Assembly: GCA_003135555.1 (NCBI GenBank)
Contig: PLCF01000047.1
Coordinates: forward strand, 1-63,386
Direction: 5' to 3'
DNA: 63,386 nucleotides
DNA from: Vulcanimicrobiota bacterium
GTDB taxonomy: Bacteria; Vulcanimicrobiota; Vulcanimicrobiia; Vulcanimicrobiales; Vulcanimicrobiaceae
How positions within the stretch are numbered: position 1 is the stretch's first letter; each line of letters begins with the position of its first letter. A model generated the notes under the pieces. That model had not been told where the DNA came from and ran no database searches. It saw nothing but the letters and a program-made list of their open reading frames with translations. This document shows positions 56,634 to 60,771 of the stretch, in pieces. The position numbers were made by a program, and so were the translations under genes.

Positions 56634-56954
56634 ATGGCTGCAGTGGATACAACCGCGTTGGCGGCGATCGTTTCGACGTGTTTTTCGTGGTCGCAGGATG
56701 CGACGCTTCCCAGTGACCAACGCTGGACGTACTACAATCTCGGCCTTCACCTGCGCGCCGAGCTCGTCGATGCATATACGGCGACGTTCCCCGACACGGA
56801 TACCCGAATTGCCGCGCTAAACACGCAACTCGGCGGTATCAATACCGACCTCGCTGCCGAGCAGGCCATCGAGAGTAGCTACGCGCAAAACGTGAACAAG
56901 ATAACGTCGGCCTTGAATATCCTGGATCAACTCTTCATGATGGTTCCGAAGTAG
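56634..56954 (+). CDS. Hypothetical helical protein (106 aa)
   Basis: Starts 3 nt after the upstream stop; AAGGGA SD. Confidence 0.7.
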   Translation: MAAVDTTALAAIVSTCFSWSQDATLPSDQRWTYYNLGLHLRAELVDAYTATFPDTDTRIAALNTQLGGINTDLAAEQAIESSYAQNVNKITSALNILDQLFMMVPK

Positions 56955-57468
56955 CGCGTCGAAAGGCCGTCGTGACCATCTCGCGCATTCGGGGGTGGTC
57001 GCGGTCTTGGGTTTTCATCCAGTCTTCGAGGTCGGGGACTGGGGCGCCGGTGCGGAAGAGCCAGTAGTACGTGCTGAGGTCGCCGACGAAGGCGAAGCGC
57101 GTTTTGGTGTCGCGGCGGATGGCGGCGTAGTCCGGGAACGAGGCTTGATACGCGGCGATGGAGCCGTGCTCGCGTTCGAGCTCGATGAGGGTTCGGGCAT
57201 TGCGGATCGTGCCCTCGATCTTGGACTTGGAGTGGACGATGCCGCCGACGTTCATGAGCCGGTCGATCTCGATGTCACCGTACGCCGCCACCTTCGCGAC
57301 GTCGAAGCCCTCGAACGCGACCACGTAGTCGTCCCAGCGCGCGTGGATGAACGCCCACGACATGCCGGCCTGCATCACCGCGCGCGTGATGATCGCCAGG
57401 TGATCGCTTAGGGTCGGGTTCTCGACGACGCGCGGAATCTGGTCCGGTGGGGTCGGACTCTTGGGGAT
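56935..57468 (-). CDS. DNA-3-methyladenine glycosylase I (Tag)-like protein
   Basis: QAGMSW...AFEGFDVAKVA...IVHSKSKIEGTIRNA...FAFVG; start uncertain. Confidence 0.75.
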   Translation of the reverse strand: MPKSPTPPDQIPRVVENPTLSDHLAIITRAVMQAGMSWAFIHARWDDYVVAFEGFDVAKVAAYGDIEIDRLMNVGGIVHSKSKIEGTIRNARTLIELEREHGSIAAYQASFPDYAAIRRDTKTRFAFVGDLSTYYWLFRTGAPVPDLEDWMKTQDRDHPRMREMVTTAFRRATSEPS

Positions 57469-57511
57469 CCGGACCGGCGGCGCTGTCTTCGCCCCAGCCT
57501 TGTTCGCGGTG

Positions 57512-58075
57512 CTAGAAGTTCTGCTTGACGGTCCACTCGCTTTGGGGATGGCTTTTCTCCAATTCGTGCCAGCCGTGCAGGAGGTCACTGGCGTTGTGGG
57601 TGGAGCGGTACGCGCTCACGCCCACGTAGTACTGTGCCTCGGCCGCGATGTGCGCGGTTGGAAAACGGCGCAGCACTTCCTCATAGAGCGCCTTGGCCGC
57701 GTCCCATTCTTTTCGCCGCAGGCGGGCGTGCGCGACCGCGGCGATGAGTTGCGCGGCGAACTCGAACGGCGGCAGATAGCCGTTCCAGCGGTACAACTCG
57801 GTCCCGTCGACGTCGAGGATACGCAGGTCGGGCGTCCAGACGTGGCGGTAGCCGTCCAGCAGCGGCTGGTTCGTCGCGACGGTGTTGTCGAGTTGGAAGG
57901 GCACGGTGAGGCGGTCGACCGCTTCACGCACCGGGGCTTCGGGATACGTCACGGTATCCAGCGCTTTGCAGCCGCCTCAACCGGGGTTGAAGACGTCCAT
58001 CAGCACGAGCCGCTCGCCGTCGCGCGCCGTTTTGAGCGCCTCGTCGAGCGACCCGAGCCACGCGATCTCGCTCAT
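57512..58075 (-). CDS. Thioredoxin-fold + TPR selenoprotein (UGA at codon 33, U-G-G-C)
   Basis: GGAG SD; MSEIAWLGSLDEALKTARDGERLVLMDVFNPG-(TGA)-GGCKALDTVTYP continues in frame into ORF 57512-57952; cis-Pro motif WTP; TPR-like C-terminus. Confidence 0.88.
57942..57959 (-). promoter_or_regulatory. Candidate bacterial SECIS hairpin
   Basis: GGAUAC-CGUGAC-GUAUCC stem-loop; apical loop 23 nt 3' of the UGA, G at loop position 2. Confidence 0.65.
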
Positions 58076-58129
58076 GCGGTTCTCCGTCGTAGCAGGGGTA
58101 GGGATTCATGGTACCCCATCCTTGGCCTC

Positions 58130-59647
58130 GTGACGAAGACCTGGGTCCTCGTTGCTGCGGTCTTGGGGTCGGCGATGACCTTCATCGACGGCAGCGCGGT
58201 GAACGTCGCCCTGCCGGTGATCCAGCGCGAGCTCGGCGCGGACGCGGCGCAGATGCAGTGGGTCATCGAAGGCTACGCGCTGTTCTTGTCGGCGCTCATC
58301 CTGCTGGGCGGCTCGCTGGGCGATCTCTACGGGCGCAAGCGGCTGTTCGTCATCGGGATCGTGATTTTTGCCGCCGCGTCGATGGGGTGCGTGGCCGCGC
58401 CCAACGTCGGCGTCTTGATCGCCGCCCGCTGCCTGCAAGGGATCGGCGCCGCCTGCGCGATGCCCGAGTCGCTGGCGCTGATCAGCGCAACCTTCTCCGG
58501 TGAACAGCGCGGGCGCGCGATCGGAACGTGGTCGGGGTTCGCATCGATCACCGGAGCCGCCGGTCCGGTGCTGGGCGGCTGGCTCGCACAGCACGGCTCG
58601 TGGCGCTGGGTCTTCCTCATCAACATCCCGATCGCGATCGTGGTCCTGGCGATCTCGTGGCGCGGCTATCCGGAGAGCCGCGACGAGGACATGCCGCATC
58701 GGCTCGACGTGCCCGGCGCATTGTTCGCGACGCTGGGGCTGGGCGCGTTCACGTTCGGTTTGATCCAATCGCAGGGCGGGCGGCCGGGCGTTCTGGGCTG
58801 GGCGGCTCTCTGCGCGGGCGTGCTGTCGCTGGGCGCGTTCGTCGTCGTCGAACGGCGCTCAACCGCGCCGATGATGCCGCTCGACCTCTTCCGTTCGCGC
58901 GTTTTCTCGGCCGCCAATCTGTACACGCTTTTCTTGTACGCGGCGCTCGGCGGCAGCCTGTACTTCTTGCCGTATCTGCTCATCGACGTGCAACACTACA
59001 CCCCCACCGCGGCCGGCGCGTCGATGCTGCCGTTCGTTATCCTGATGTTCGCGCTGTCGCGCTGGTCCGGCGGTCTGACCGCTCGCATCGGGGCGCGCAT
59101 CCCGCTGGTCGCCGGCGCGCTCGTGGCGGCGGCCGGATTCGCCGCCTTCGCGTTGCCCGGGTTGGGAGGCTCGTATTGGACCACCTATTTCCCGGCGGCG
59201 CTGTTGCTCGGCATCGGGGGAACGCTGTTCGTGGCGCCGCTCACGACGACGGTCTTCGACGCGGTCGACACCGAGAAGAGCGGCGTCGCGTCAGGGGTCA
59301 ACAACGCCGTCGCGCGCACGGCGGGATTGCTCGCGGTCGCCGGATTGGGCATCGTGCTGGCCGGTGTCTTCAACGTGGGCTTCGACAAGCGCATCGCGCG
59401 GCATCATCTCAGCCCGCAGACCGCACGGATCGCACACGACGAACGCGCGCGCTTGTACGCCGGAACCGTCCCGAGCGACGTCCCCGAGGCCGACCGCGCG
59501 GCGGTCGGTGAGGCGGTGCGCGAAGGGTATCTGGCCGGGTTCCGGGGCGTGATGGCCGCGTCGGTCGGCGTCTGCCTGCTGGCCGCGCTCATCGCCTTGG
59601 TGGCGATTCCGGGCCGTCAGCCGCGGCGCGATTCCCGATCGGCGTAA
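58130..59647 (+). CDS. MFS transporter, DHA2 (EmrB/QacA) type
   Basis: DGSAVNVALP, GSLGDLYGRKR, GPVLGG, WRWVFLINIP; ~14 TMs. Confidence 0.93.
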   Translation: MTKTWVLVAAVLGSAMTFIDGSAVNVALPVIQRELGADAAQMQWVIEGYALFLSALILLGGSLGDLYGRKRLFVIGIVIFAAASMGCVAAPNVGVLIAARCLQGIGAACAMPESLALISATFSGEQRGRAIGTWSGFASITGAAGPVLGGWLAQHGSWRWVFLINIPIAIVVLAISWRGYPESRDEDMPHRLDVPGALFATLGLGAFTFGLIQSQGGRPGVLGWAALCAGVLSLGAFVVVERRSTAPMMPLDLFRSRVFSAANLYTLFLYAALGGSLYFLPYLLIDVQHYTPTAAGASMLPFVILMFALSRWSGGLTARIGARIPLVAGALVAAAGFAAFALPGLGGSYWTTYFPAALLLGIGGTLFVAPLTTTVFDAVDTEKSGVASGVNNAVARTAGLLAVAGLGIVLAGVFNVGFDKRIARHHLSPQTARIAHDERARLYAGTVPSDVPEADRAAVGEAVREGYLAGFRGVMAASVGVCLLAALIALVAIPGRQPRRDSRSA

Positions 59648-60771
59648 AGGTCGGAGTCGGCCGCAATGAGCGCGTCGGCGAAGTCGATCTCGCCGCCGAA
59701 TGCGGCCACGCCCCACGTGATCCGCACCGGCATCCCGACGTCCTCGGCGAGCACGGCCAGATCGCCGTCGATCGCGACCAACCGCAGGCGTACGACCGCG
59801 GCGTCGACGCCGCTCCAAATCCCCGCGAACTCGTCACCGCCGATGCGGTACACGATCCCGGCCGGGCCGCAGCGCTCGCGCAGACAGCGCGAAACGCTGG
59901 CCAACGCCATGTCGCCCGCCGCATGCCCCATGCGGTCGTTGATCGTTTTGAGCTCGTCGAGGTCGATCATCGCCACGCAGCCGCTGTCCGGCGTGTTCTC
60001 GAGCCGCTCCAGGAATGCGGCGCGGTTGGGGATTCCGCACAGCGCGTCGGTGTACGCGGCGTCGTGCAGCGCACGCTGTGCATGCGCGAGCGCGTCGTTG
60101 CGGCGTTCGAGCTCGACGTGCGCGCGGTCGGTGGCATGCACGACCAATGCCACGCCTAGCGCGATGTCGAGCACTACGGTGATGTAGCTCTCAAGTCCGA
60201 GATACGTCGCCGGGAAGCGGACCCCGGCGAGGGTGAGCAGCGGGACGTGCAAGTAGTCCAGGGCCAGCAAGAACAGCGCGACGGTCAGCAGCCGCGTTCC
60301 GAGCCCGCGCACCTGGGCGCGCAGCAGCTCGGCGACGGCGCAGGCCAGCAGCGCCGCTAGGCATGCGGAGTGGACGCGGTAGGCATCGAGAAACTCGGCG
60401 TCGAGCGATGCCGCGCCGGTGGCGCAGACGGCGAGCGCGACCGCGACGAGCACGGTCGTCGGCACCGGACGGACACCGCGGCGCCGGCGGATTGCGGCGA
60501 TGAACGCCACCGCGCCGAGGTCTTCGAGCGCGGCATAGGCCATGGTCGCGCCGGGCAATCCCGGGAGCAATCCGGCTTCACGCACCAGCGCCGAAACCGA
60601 CAGGACCGCGATCGCGCAGGCGTACAGCGCGAGCCCCACTGTCCAGCCGTCGAGCGGCTTGCGCCCCAGCGAGACGCGCACGAGCACGGCCAGCACCGTC
60701 AGCAGCGTCAAGACGCCCAACTGAAGGAACATTGAAAGGTAGCCGACGAGGTGCTCGCCCAGCGGAGCCAT
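59617..60771 (-). CDS. Membrane-bound diguanylate cyclase
   Basis: ~7 TMs; TDALCGIPNR, DLDELKTINDRMGHAAGD, RIGGDEF. Confidence 0.92.
   Translation of the reverse strand: MAPLGEHLVGYLSMFLQLGVLTLLTVLAVLVRVSLGRKPLDGWTVGLALYACAIAVLSVSALVREAGLLPGLPGATMAYAALEDLGAVAFIAAIRRRRGVRPVPTTVLVAVALAVCATGAASLDAEFLDAYRVHSACLAALLACAVAELLRAQVRGLGTRLLTVALFLLALDYLHVPLLTLAGVRFPATYLGLESYITVVLDIALGVALVVHATDRAHVELERRNDALAHAQRALHDAAYTDALCGIPNRAAFLERLENTPDSGCVAMIDLDELKTINDRMGHAAGDMALASVSRCLRERCGPAGIVYRIGGDEFAGIWSGVDAAVVRLRLVAIDGDLAVLAEDVGMPVRITWGVAAFGGEIDFADALIAADSDLYADRESRRG

Follow-up and report, generated by a model that had tools for sequence, protein, structure and literature searches.

A predicted UGA-encoded selenocysteine in a thioredoxin-fold and TPR-like protein of Eremiobacterota

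Eremiobacterota, a phylum found in peat and soil, are poorly known, and most of them are uncultured. In the window (the whole stretch of 63,386 nucleotides analyzed here), a reading frame on the minus strand runs into a TGA codon and continues beyond it, which raises the question of whether this codon ends a gene or is translated as selenocysteine (Sec). The original prediction had proposed a hidden selenoprotein of 187 amino acids, opened by an ATG at 58075 behind a GGAG motif, and every element of that layout was recovered on the minus strand (Table 1). A run of 32 sense codons leads to TGA 57979–57977, which is followed by GGC GGC TGC and then by an open frame up to TAG 57514–57512. Within 15 same-genus orthologues the ATG lies at the identical aligned position in all 15, and most of the 24 full-length orthologues compared (the genome of the window and 23 relatives, the 15 same-genus genes among them) have a GGAG-like motif ahead of the ATG. 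The conserved UGA, the homologues with Cys, a hairpin that covaries, the Sec machinery of the genome and the modelled fold, all described below, make it very probable that this is an intact 187-codon selenoprotein gene, in which UGA 33 is read as a predicted Sec at a thioredoxin-like active site.

Table 1. Features of the predicted selenoprotein gene, with positions in the window.
Feature	Position	Strand	Details
Shine-Dalgarno GGAG	58082..58085	-	spacer of 6 nt to the ATG; direct reading
ATG start of the 187-codon gene	58073..58075	-	direct reading and translation
Whole predicted selenoprotein CDS	57512..58075	-	187 residues, U33, TAG 57514–57512; translated with TGA as U
Predicted Sec codon UGA, residue 33	57977..57979	-	opens the U-G-G-C redox motif
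Putative resolving Cys36 codon TGC	57968..57970	-	TGC in 24/24 orthologues
Candidate SECIS core hairpin	57942..57959	-	GGAUAC (57959–57954), loop CGUGAC (57953–57948), GUAUCC (57947–57942)
Optional lower stem	57935..57973	-	GGCU 57973–57970 with AGCC 57938–57935; not conserved family-wide
Thioredoxin-fold domain, about residues 1–108	57752..58075	-	DsbD-gamma/Thioredoxin_7-like
C-terminal TPR-like helical domain, about residues 103–184	57524..57769	-	model and structure matches
GTG false start of the 146-aa stump	57950..57952	-	Val42, inside the SECIS loop

The conservation of the TGA codon was analyzed in the 24 full-length orthologues, whose alignments span residues 1–187. Each of them contains one TGA, always at the same codon (24/24). 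The codon was also kept in 80/80 species-level loci, with protein identities as low as 43%, and in 7/7 metagenome loci, so that TGC or TGT, the codons that would have spoken for a nonsense mutation or a sequencing error, were absent from the relatives examined. The orthologues are kin and their counts are therefore not independent events. The sharing of the codon by 24/24 orthologues and 80/80 further loci lies far above chance. A divergent subfamily also has TGA in 11/11 loci, followed by a different hairpin that starts 9 nt past the UGA. One locus, L125, was exceptional: its codon 12 is an additional TAG, and its stem contains a mismatch. Independent DNA was available from a contig of run X6, which covers 57953–58072 and shows zero differences.

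Homologues with Cys at this site, which the original prediction had suggested looking for, were found in the distant full-length proteins P0100, P0116 and P0122 (43–45% identity). In all three the Cys aligns exactly opposite the TGA, at the first Cys position of a thioredoxin CxxC motif as had been proposed, and C-x-x-C occupies the site in 46/66 full-length representatives. The invariant residues of a 39-member family alignment were W6, position 33 (C33), C36 and P82. As a control for the hairpin, DNA of the Cys form was sought in 101 genomes of the family of locus L122 and in a metagenome scan, and TGA forms alone were returned.

The selABCD machinery implied by a Sec reading was found in the same genome. 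The genes selA and selB lie side by side on contig 38, selD has an in-frame TGA of its own (motif SACAG-U-ASK), and tRNA-Sec(UCA) is the sole tRNA with a UCA anticodon among 56 ARAGORN predictions; both tRNA-Trp genes carry CCA. SelA was present in 55/61 genomes of a sample of the class, and in 33/33 of the high-quality ones.

The 6-bp stem with loop CGUGAC that the original prediction had placed 17 nt downstream of the TGA is there base for base, its apical loop beginning 23 nt past the UGA. Across 80 sequences the stem was paired in 474/480 cells (98.8%), against 18–53% in controls with the stem slid along the sequence. Three of its pairs were changed on both sides, and 0/500 shuffles reached the observed values. 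In one such compensatory case, a change of D to G is accompanied by TAT to TAC and the pairing is kept. The loop CGUGAC was found in 78/80 sequences, the remaining two differing by a T in column 31, the fifth position of the loop, and nucleotide conservation drops abruptly past column 38. Synonymous diversity was 0.085 in codons 36–44 and 0.40 elsewhere; this was the lowest of 97 windows of codons, and 0/100000 random draws were as low. Minor codons are fixed in the stem, with GAT in 23/23 and TAT in 23/24 cases, compared with 62/264 and 52/190 outside the stem of the same genes. The peptide over the hairpin, A-L-D-T-V-T-Y-P, is itself conserved, and part of the nucleotide conservation is therefore a protein constraint.

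The energy of the region was less distinctive. The core hairpin has −6.0 kcal/mol alone, −6.8 in context and −10.4 with the lower stem, and a 71-nt stretch folds no better than shuffled sequences (z = 0.35, 126/200 shuffles as good), so that it is conservation and covariation, and not energy, that support the hairpin. The bSECIS model provides a comparison. The legend of Fig. 2 in PMC13188914 gives the bSECISearch limits as a loop of 3–9 nt, a stem of 4–16 bp and a spacing of 16–37 nt, and the same source describes a G within the first two loop positions and an energy limit of −7.5 kcal/mol. Against the model as described there, the 6-nt loop, the 6-bp stem, the loop G2 followed by U and the distance of 23 nt all fit, whereas the conserved core, at −6.0 to −6.8 kcal/mol, falls short of −7.5, a limit passed only when the non-conserved lower stem is added. 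The lower GGCU/AGCC pairing was paired at 87.5% among 24 sequences and at 70% among 80, where pair 9–43 was unpaired in 50/80, and it was rejected as a conserved part of the element. Of the hairpin originally proposed, the 6-bp core stood, covarying and of bSECIS geometry, while the lower pairing can form here and in the genus and is not conserved across the family. A search of Rfam over 57400–58200 returned nothing near a gathering score, the four matches being at chance level (E 0.8–2.9), and a promoter and terminator scan over 57300–58400 found none.

The description of the product as a thioredoxin-fold/TPR protein held up in weak Pfam matches, in a structure model and in structural matches to both domains. 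The AlphaFold2 model (pLDDT 97, pTM 0.92) places strand 23–29 ahead of helix 34–43, with U33 and C36 at the start of the helix. In Foldseek, 1vrs and 1uc7 matched residues 1–121 with TM(target) 0.72–0.79, and VIA gave Z 13.9 for 3f9u, 13.3 for 2ju5 and 13.3 for 1vrs_D over the thioredoxin domain. The best Pfam match, PF13098 (Thioredoxin_2), scored 26.3 bits, 0.7 short of the gathering cut-off of 27, and a precomputed PF13098 label is attached to many of the orthologues. In thioredoxin-fold oxidoreductases a conserved cis-proline loop faces the active site; in 39 family members P82 was invariant, and W80 and T81 were at least 90% conserved. The C-terminal part of the model consists of helices 103–120, 124–137, 144–159, 162–175 and 180–184, for which VIA found the TPR of YbgF (2xev, Z 12.8) and those of BamD, YfgM and Sgt2 (Z 11.8–12.9); profile matches to TPR_6, TPR_14 and ybgF were weak. 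As modelled, the protein is a DsbD-gamma-like thioredoxin domain joined to a TPR-like domain.

Public annotations routinely shorten this gene. The mechanical list of open reading frames, which misses the full gene as had been noticed in the original prediction, gives just a 146-aa ORF (57512–57952) starting from the GTG in the hairpin loop. Among the matches listed, 116/120 database relatives are 140–150 aa long and cover 70–80% of the query, the aligned short relatives begin at query residue 39 or 42, and the names given to the 146-aa form are 'hypothetical' or 'TPR' protein. Both the ORF list and these 116/120 relatives agree with TGA being a true stop, the 146-aa ORF from GTG 57952 being the product and the upstream 32 codons a remnant or leader. 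Such a product is extremely improbable. Three parts of the fold modelled at pLDDT 97 would be missing from the stump, namely its first strand, its first helix and its active site; the TGA lines up with the catalytic Cys of the homologues; and the GTG, inside the hairpin loop, has no GGAG-like motif ahead of it. Moreover, the upstream codons are kept in frame behind a conserved ATG and Shine-Dalgarno motif, and their substitution pattern indicates that they are under purifying selection, with a dN/dS of 0.26 for codons 2–32 and of 0.15 for codons 46–187 (105 pairs from the 15 same-genus genes).

Two further alternatives accept that the ribosome passes the UGA, or that the protein contains Sec, and differ in how. 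The UGA might be decoded otherwise, by near-cognate Trp or Cys read-through or under a reassigned code. Representative P0166 shows W at the site (W-G-G-C), as if a gene caller had used a table with TGA as Trp, and the Sec in the protein is predicted from sequence. However, TGA terminates 7/24 of the orthologous genes themselves, the UCA anticodon is confined to tRNA-Sec while both tRNA-Trp are CCA, the genome has the full Sec machinery with a selD that itself uses Sec, and a covarying hairpin stands at SECIS distance, which leaves this alternative with a very small probability. The other possibility is a true selenoprotein whose 6-bp hairpin is not the SECIS, the conservation reflecting the peptide or another RNA role and SelB binding elsewhere. 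In its favor, the hairpin by itself reaches just −6.0 kcal/mol, the region folds no better than shuffled sequence, and the Cys forms also conserve the peptide over the hairpin. The peptide cannot, however, explain frozen synonymous sites with minor codons; compensatory changes hold the pairing through amino-acid changes; the conservation of nucleotides stops sharply after column 38; and in the divergent subfamily the same place is taken by another hairpin, which starts 9 nt past the UGA. A role other than SECIS is accordingly given a very small probability, and the hairpin is taken here as the candidate SECIS of a Sec-decoding gene.

Under the preferred reading, a Sec codon with its SECIS just downstream, SelB carrying Sec-tRNA(Sec) would bind the hairpin GGAUAC-CGUGAC-GUAUCC and deliver selenocysteine at codon 33, which would let the ribosome go on to translate the remaining codons. 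The product would be a soluble, probably cytoplasmic protein of two domains. Its likely chemistry would be that of a thiol-disulfide reductase: the U33 selenolate may attack a substrate disulfide (or sulfenate), the mixed selenenylsulfide may be resolved by Cys36, and the Se-S bond may be recycled by an upstream reductant. The role of the TPR-like domain would be to bind a partner protein. We infer that Sec is actually inserted, that the enzyme works in the direction of reduction, that it resides in the cytoplasm and that its TPR-like domain binds a partner, and for the functional details the chances are about even.

The protein was also compared with known families. Table 1 of PMC13188914 lists a 'Thiol:disulfide interchange protein' selenoprotein family (PF13098, UxxC), with WP_011366075.1 as the representative, and credits it to Kryukov and Gladyshev 2004; the tables of PMC1794560 list this family for Geobacter and Syntrophus. 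The thioredoxin fold and the UxxC motif are common to that family and to the present protein, a comparison made by description. Its hosts, as reported in those tables, are Deltaproteobacteria, whereas the present gene belongs to Eremiobacterota. The Atlas cluster nearest to the Cys form P0100 by language-model features is a 194-aa PF13098 family that is commonest in Thermodesulfobacteriota. The best structural matches, DsbD gamma, DsbH and Thioredoxin_7, have the redox motif at the same place. These are periplasmic or membrane-linked Cys proteins, in contrast with the present protein, which has a predicted Sec and a TPR-like tail, and whose sequence contains neither a signal peptide nor a membrane part. 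The profile match to the DsbD C-terminus was weak (31 bits against a cut-off of 330).

The chaperedoxin CnoX/YbbN has the same order of parts, with the thioredoxin fold first and the TPR domain at the C-terminus. Foldseek matched its structures 3qou and 3qdn over 187–198 columns, with rmsd 10–11 and TMq 0.42–0.43. The whole superposition is thus poor and the present protein is about 100 residues shorter, and the profile searches gave no CnoX/YbbN sequence-family match. By analogy of domain order, a CnoX-like way of working can be hypothesized. The VPGUxxT thioredoxin-like selenoproteins share a thioredoxin-like fold and P-G-U with the present protein, with weak matches. Membership in that group was rejected, on scores of 18.9 against 275 bits for NF041383 and 14.9 against 350 for NF041382, and on the motif N-P-G-U-G-G-C, which ends in Cys, not Thr. 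Among the other NCBIfam selenoprotein models (TsoB, Trx7/PDZ and others) the best was TsoB with 20.1 against 805 bits, and none of the NCBIfam cut-offs was reached by this protein or by five Cys-form homologues.

The predicted selenoprotein is of an ordinary bacterial kind, and its family is apparently uncatalogued, the comparison with the PF13098 UxxC family being one of descriptions. Its mechanism would not surprise a specialist, since UxxC selenoproteins of the thioredoxin fold with a SECIS right after the UGA are well known. The literature search found no paper tying Eremiobacterota to selenocysteine, and the corrected annotation adds to this phylum a predicted selenoprotein and a usable SECIS example. 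The gene also offers gene callers a clear test, and its compact, confidently modelled product lends itself to studying why Sec is retained.

A broader and rather doubtful proposal, offered tentatively, is that these genes form an uncatalogued selenoprotein family spanning several phyla. It would consist of short cytoplasmic thioredoxin-TPR proteins, essentially fixed for Sec in Eremiobacterota and neighbours (more than 100 genes examined there, all keeping the TGA), with at least two SECIS designs across two subfamilies and an occasional reversion to Cys, for which an apparent case lies next to loci L122 and L130. Its members may be Se-dependent, CnoX-like redox partners or holdases, the TPR selecting the clients. 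If this is true, a SECIS lying within the codons of A-L-D-T-V-T-Y-P would offer a clean example, from nature, of codons that specify an RNA element and a peptide at once.

Two RNA libraries gave matches to the gene. Library X20 gave a 35-nt piece only, and library X19 one 426-nt contig, 87% alike, that spans 57669–58082 and crosses both the start and the TGA. Since the contig derives from a relative, and since DNA can be present in RNA libraries, it does not show transcription here. Regarding the neighbourhood, neither a conserved neighbour nor a known partner gave a hint of the substrate in the 80 loci, and clustering of all their flank ORFs yielded no widely shared partner. A downstream methyladenine-glycosylase gene was found in 21/80 loci and a divergent MFS transporter in 17/80, both essentially within the same genus alone. 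One flank cluster extended over 58 loci and consisted of an antisense ORF lying over the selenoprotein gene itself.

When the in-frame TGA of the gene at 57512..58075 (minus strand) is translated as selenocysteine (Sec, U), a protein of 187 residues with the motif D-V-F-N-P-G-U-G-G-C-K is obtained, and the gene very probably encodes such a selenoprotein. The Shine-Dalgarno sequence (SD), the ATG, the TGA, the motif and the hairpin were all confirmed, together with the gap in the mechanical ORF list, which has at this locus a 146-aa ORF only (57512-57952, with a GTG start within the hairpin loop); therefore, the description in the original prediction was exact, every element, reading frame included, lying in its place.

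Features of the candidate selenoprotein gene and its product, the neighbouring genes and the Sec machinery (window positions unless a contig of the genome, C, is named)
Feature	Position	Strand	Remarks
Shine-Dalgarno GGAG	58085-58082	-	six bases upstream of ATG; sequence reading
ATG start codon	58075-58073	-	32 sense codons until TGA; sequence reading
In-frame TGA	57979-57977	-	GGC GGC TGC directly 3'; sequence reading
Possible lower stem	GGCU 57973-57970 with AGCC 57938-57935	-	pairing possible in window sequence
Hairpin GGAUAC-CGUGAC-GUAUCC	57959-57942	-	seventeen bases 3' of TGA
Terminator TAG	57514-57512	-	open frame between TGA and TAG
Methyladenine glycosylase-like gene (PF03352)	56935-57459	-	just downstream, same strand; genus-only
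MFS transporter (PF07690)	starts near 58130	+	199.7 bits; genus-only
GGDEF diguanylate cyclase	59617-60771	-	further upstream; genus-only
selA	C38:8263-9357		418.7 bits
selB	directly downstream of selA		278 bits, 306 with neighbours in frame
selD (locus L002)	C98:19906-20829	-	376.7 bits
tRNA-Sec, anticodon UCA	C91:714-807		73.5 bits against RF01852; also called by ARAGORN
DsbD-gamma structures (Foldseek)	residues 1-121		TM(target) 0.72-0.79
3f9u, 2ju5, 1vrs_D (VIA)	residues 1-121		Z 13.3-13.9
YbgF, BamD, YfgM, Sgt2 TPR domains (VIA)	residues 100-187		Z 11.8-12.9
E. coli YbbN (Foldseek)	whole protein		rmsd 10.9

The orthologue search over 60 relatives returned full-length copies in 23 genomes, giving 24 genes with the window copy. 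Each contains exactly one in-frame TGA, at the identical codon of the extracted loci in 24/24 (22/22 without L029 and L037, two loci from unpublished genomes), and a conserved ATG, mostly with a GGAG-like SD, precedes the frames. The redox motif is U-G-G-C in 23 of the 24 and U-G-A-C in one. TGA terminates 7/24 orthologues and is thus also their ordinary stop. A scan with one genome per species gave 113 relatives, and TGA occupied the site in 80/80 of the best 80 of these 113, down to 43% identity. According to their record titles, these loci come from Vulcanimicrobiota / Eremiobacteraeota, Candidatus Elarobacter (at 79-87% identity nearer than any other group) and Baltobacteraceae, with others from MAGs labelled Chloroflexota, Acidimicrobiia, Pyrinomonadaceae, Acidoferrum and Binatia. 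Metagenome loci covering the site also had TGA (7/7). In all three sets the codon was TGA, and not the TGC or TGT that, according to the original prediction, would speak against Sec if carried by close relatives of a genome lacking Sec machinery.

Two single loci were irregular. The orthologue L045 (G044:C2:301275-301833) was matched as two pieces that overlap (residues 2-76 and 66-187), pointing to a frameshift or a misassembly in genome G044. The copy L125:2477-3080, from a MAG labelled Chloroflexota, carries a further TAG in frame, at codon 12, and its SECIS stem contains an A-C mismatch; this copy may be decaying or an assembly error.

That the TGA is a true stop and the 146-aa protein the product is scarcely credible. 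Of the 120 relatives listed from a large protein collection, 116 are 140-150 aa long, covering just 70-80% of the query (the other four being two fragments and the full-length proteins P0100 and P0116). The dN/dS was 0.26 in codons 2-32 vs 0.15 in codons 46-187 (15 same-genus genes, 105 pairs), and therefore the stretch upstream of the TGA is translated. A UGA that is decoded, though as something other than Sec, is a highly improbable reading of a genome in which ARAGORN found no second UCA-anticodon tRNA among 56 tRNAs and a CCA anticodon in both tRNA-Trp genes. As for the Sec machinery that the original prediction expected elsewhere, selA, selB, selD and tRNA-Sec were all located in this genome (98 contigs, 84% complete). 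Among 61 genomes drawn from the genus, the order and the class, 55 had SelA, and among those of high quality 33/33 (a tally taking in the unpublished genomes G048 and G059); Sec is used by the window organism and by its relatives.

The selD gene encodes a selenoprotein too: its frame contains a TGA (motif S-A-C-A-G-U-A-S-K) followed by two hairpins, the second of which, GGCGCAG-GUC-CUGCGCC, has a loop beginning G-U, 33 nt after the UGA. ARAGORN also called a 'tRNA-Pyl' with a CUA anticodon and a peculiar 'tRNA-???' whose anticodon has four bases, a pair listed jointly at C83:49917-49991 (+) and C85:16430-16525 (-); the former sits in a tRNA cluster including Leu, Tyr, Met and Pro and has a mismatched anticodon stem. 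Either an amber suppressor or miscalling may lie behind these calls.

The candidate SECIS element was compared across the same genes. Every cell of the 6-bp stem is paired in the 24 sequences, and 98.8% of 480 cells in 80 sequences (the window copy and the 79 non-identical ones among the 80 loci). In the larger set three stem pairs are altered on both sides, from A-U to G-C in seven sequences, from G-C to A-U in one and, by the tool's counting, from U-A to G-U in one, and one stem pair shows 16 G-U wobbles. Of 500 shuffles, none equalled the real stem in pairing, in two-sided changes or in covariation score, a figure which is not a probability since the hairpin sequences are related; control slid partners paired in 18-53% of cells. 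Hardly any nucleotide varies between the TGA and column 38, beyond which conservation drops. Synonymous diversity was 0.085 in codons 36-44, the lowest of 97 windows, vs 0.40 in the other informative columns, and 0/100000 random draws were equally low. The stem Asp is GAT in 23/23 genes (62/264 elsewhere in the same genes) and the stem Tyr is TAT in 23/24 (elsewhere 52/190), and an Asp to Gly change (GAT to GGT) is accompanied by a silent TAT to TAC in the partner codon. In Pyrinomonadaceae-type genes the hairpin is a variant whose loop has 5 nt (CGUGA) and which contains a bulged base.

It is very unlikely that a genuine Sec codon is served here by a SECIS other than this conserved hairpin. 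Its geometry (6-nt loop with G and U at positions 2-3, 6-bp stem, 23 nt from UGA to loop) is consistent with the model for bacterial SECIS elements that PMC13188914 quotes in its Fig. 2 legend. Speaking against the assignment, the core alone gave only -6.0 to -6.8 kcal/mol vs the model limit of -7.5, which was reached solely when the lower stem was added (-10.4), and the hairpin region folded no better than shuffled sequence. The lower GGCU/AGCC stem of the original prediction can pair in the window sequence but is not conserved; it was excluded from the conserved element because over the 80 sequences it is 70% paired, and 50 of them do not form pair 9-43. In a divergent subfamily of 11 loci (L132-L142; genomes of the family of genome G061, 29-37% identity to P0100) TGA is kept at the same site, in the motif A-P-[A/G]-U-G-[A/G]-C, and a different 8-bp hairpin, typically GCUCGGCU-GGA-AGCCGAGU, begins 9 nt after the UGA. 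A retained TGA with a changed hairpin is expected of a Sec site whose SECIS can be rebuilt freely.

Regarding the protein, Thioredoxin_2 of Pfam was matched at 26.3 bits vs 27, and Thioredoxin_7, DsbH-type and TPR matches were also sub-threshold. In NCBIfam, the DsbD C-terminus, TsoB, VPGUxxT families and YbgF were weakly matched, all far under the cut-offs, and likewise none of five Cys forms reached a cut-off. The AlphaFold2 model (39-sequence alignment; pLDDT 97, pTM 0.92) consists of a beta-alpha thioredoxin fold, in which U33 and C36 sit where helix 34-43 begins, and of five subsequent helices (residues 103-184). W6, C33, C36 and P82 are invariant in this family alignment. We infer a cytoplasmic location, since no hydrophobic stretch occurs at the N-terminus, which belongs to the fold from W6 onward. 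Under the selenoprotein reading, SelB-dependent insertion of Sec would occur at codon 33, steered by the conserved hairpin. The product may be a U-x-x-C thioredoxin-fold reductase whose TPR-like domain would probably bind a protein partner, functional details to which, jointly, an about even chance is given.

UxxC thioredoxin-fold selenoproteins are already known as a kind. Many are listed in Table 1 of a 2026 review (PMC13188914), including a 'thiol:disulfide interchange protein' family with PF13098, which the tables of PMC1794560 place in Geobacter and Syntrophus; the present protein shares the thioredoxin fold and the UxxC motif with this family, to which it may belong. In the literature as far as covered by our search, no description of this protein and no work linking Eremiobacterota to selenocysteine were found. 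The BSepDB text does not mention 'Eremiobacter', 'TPR' or 'thioredoxin', nor was a matching mention found in its supplement (one file, possibly incomplete).

Cys-bearing homologues, also proposed as a check in the original prediction, do exist. The representative library gave 1617 matches at E <= 0.001, and 152 proteins were examined (150 listed, plus P0100 and P0116, which carry Cys at the Sec site as D-P-T-C-x-G-C). Proteins of 175-225 aa accounted for 66 of the 152, 46 of them with C-x-x-C aligned to U-G-G-C. Another 63 have 140-170 aa, and those checked in the match table start at query residue 39-42, as expected for further cut Sec forms. In the full-length relative P0166 the redox motif reads W-G-G-C, as though the gene caller had translated TGA as Trp; this protein is probably another Sec form in disguise. 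In a quick, unfinished tree (144 rows, midpoint root, SH-aLRT support only; without proteins P0123 and P0172 and locus L125), all 80 Sec rows fell within one 84-row clade (support 99) with three Cys rows and one other, and P0100 and P0116 were nested next to L122 and L130, two Sec genes with a Pyrinomonadaceae label. This topology hints at a single Sec origin with a subsequent switch to Cys.

No function is suggested by the neighbourhood, in which the methyladenine glycosylase and MFS genes are common to the genus only. In a 728-aa ORF of the mechanical list (57461-59647, plus strand), the complementary strand of the selenoprotein gene is fused to the true MFS gene; the antisense stretch is a high-G+C artefact, and the 'conserved neighbour' cluster that it formed in 58/80 loci is false. 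Near-identical DNA is present in peat-metagenome runs from several studies. A 426-nt contig of the RNA library X19, 87% alike over 57669-58082, spans the start and the TGA; it is from a relative and no proof of transcription. A contig of run X6 reproduces 57953-58072 with 0 differences, TGA included.
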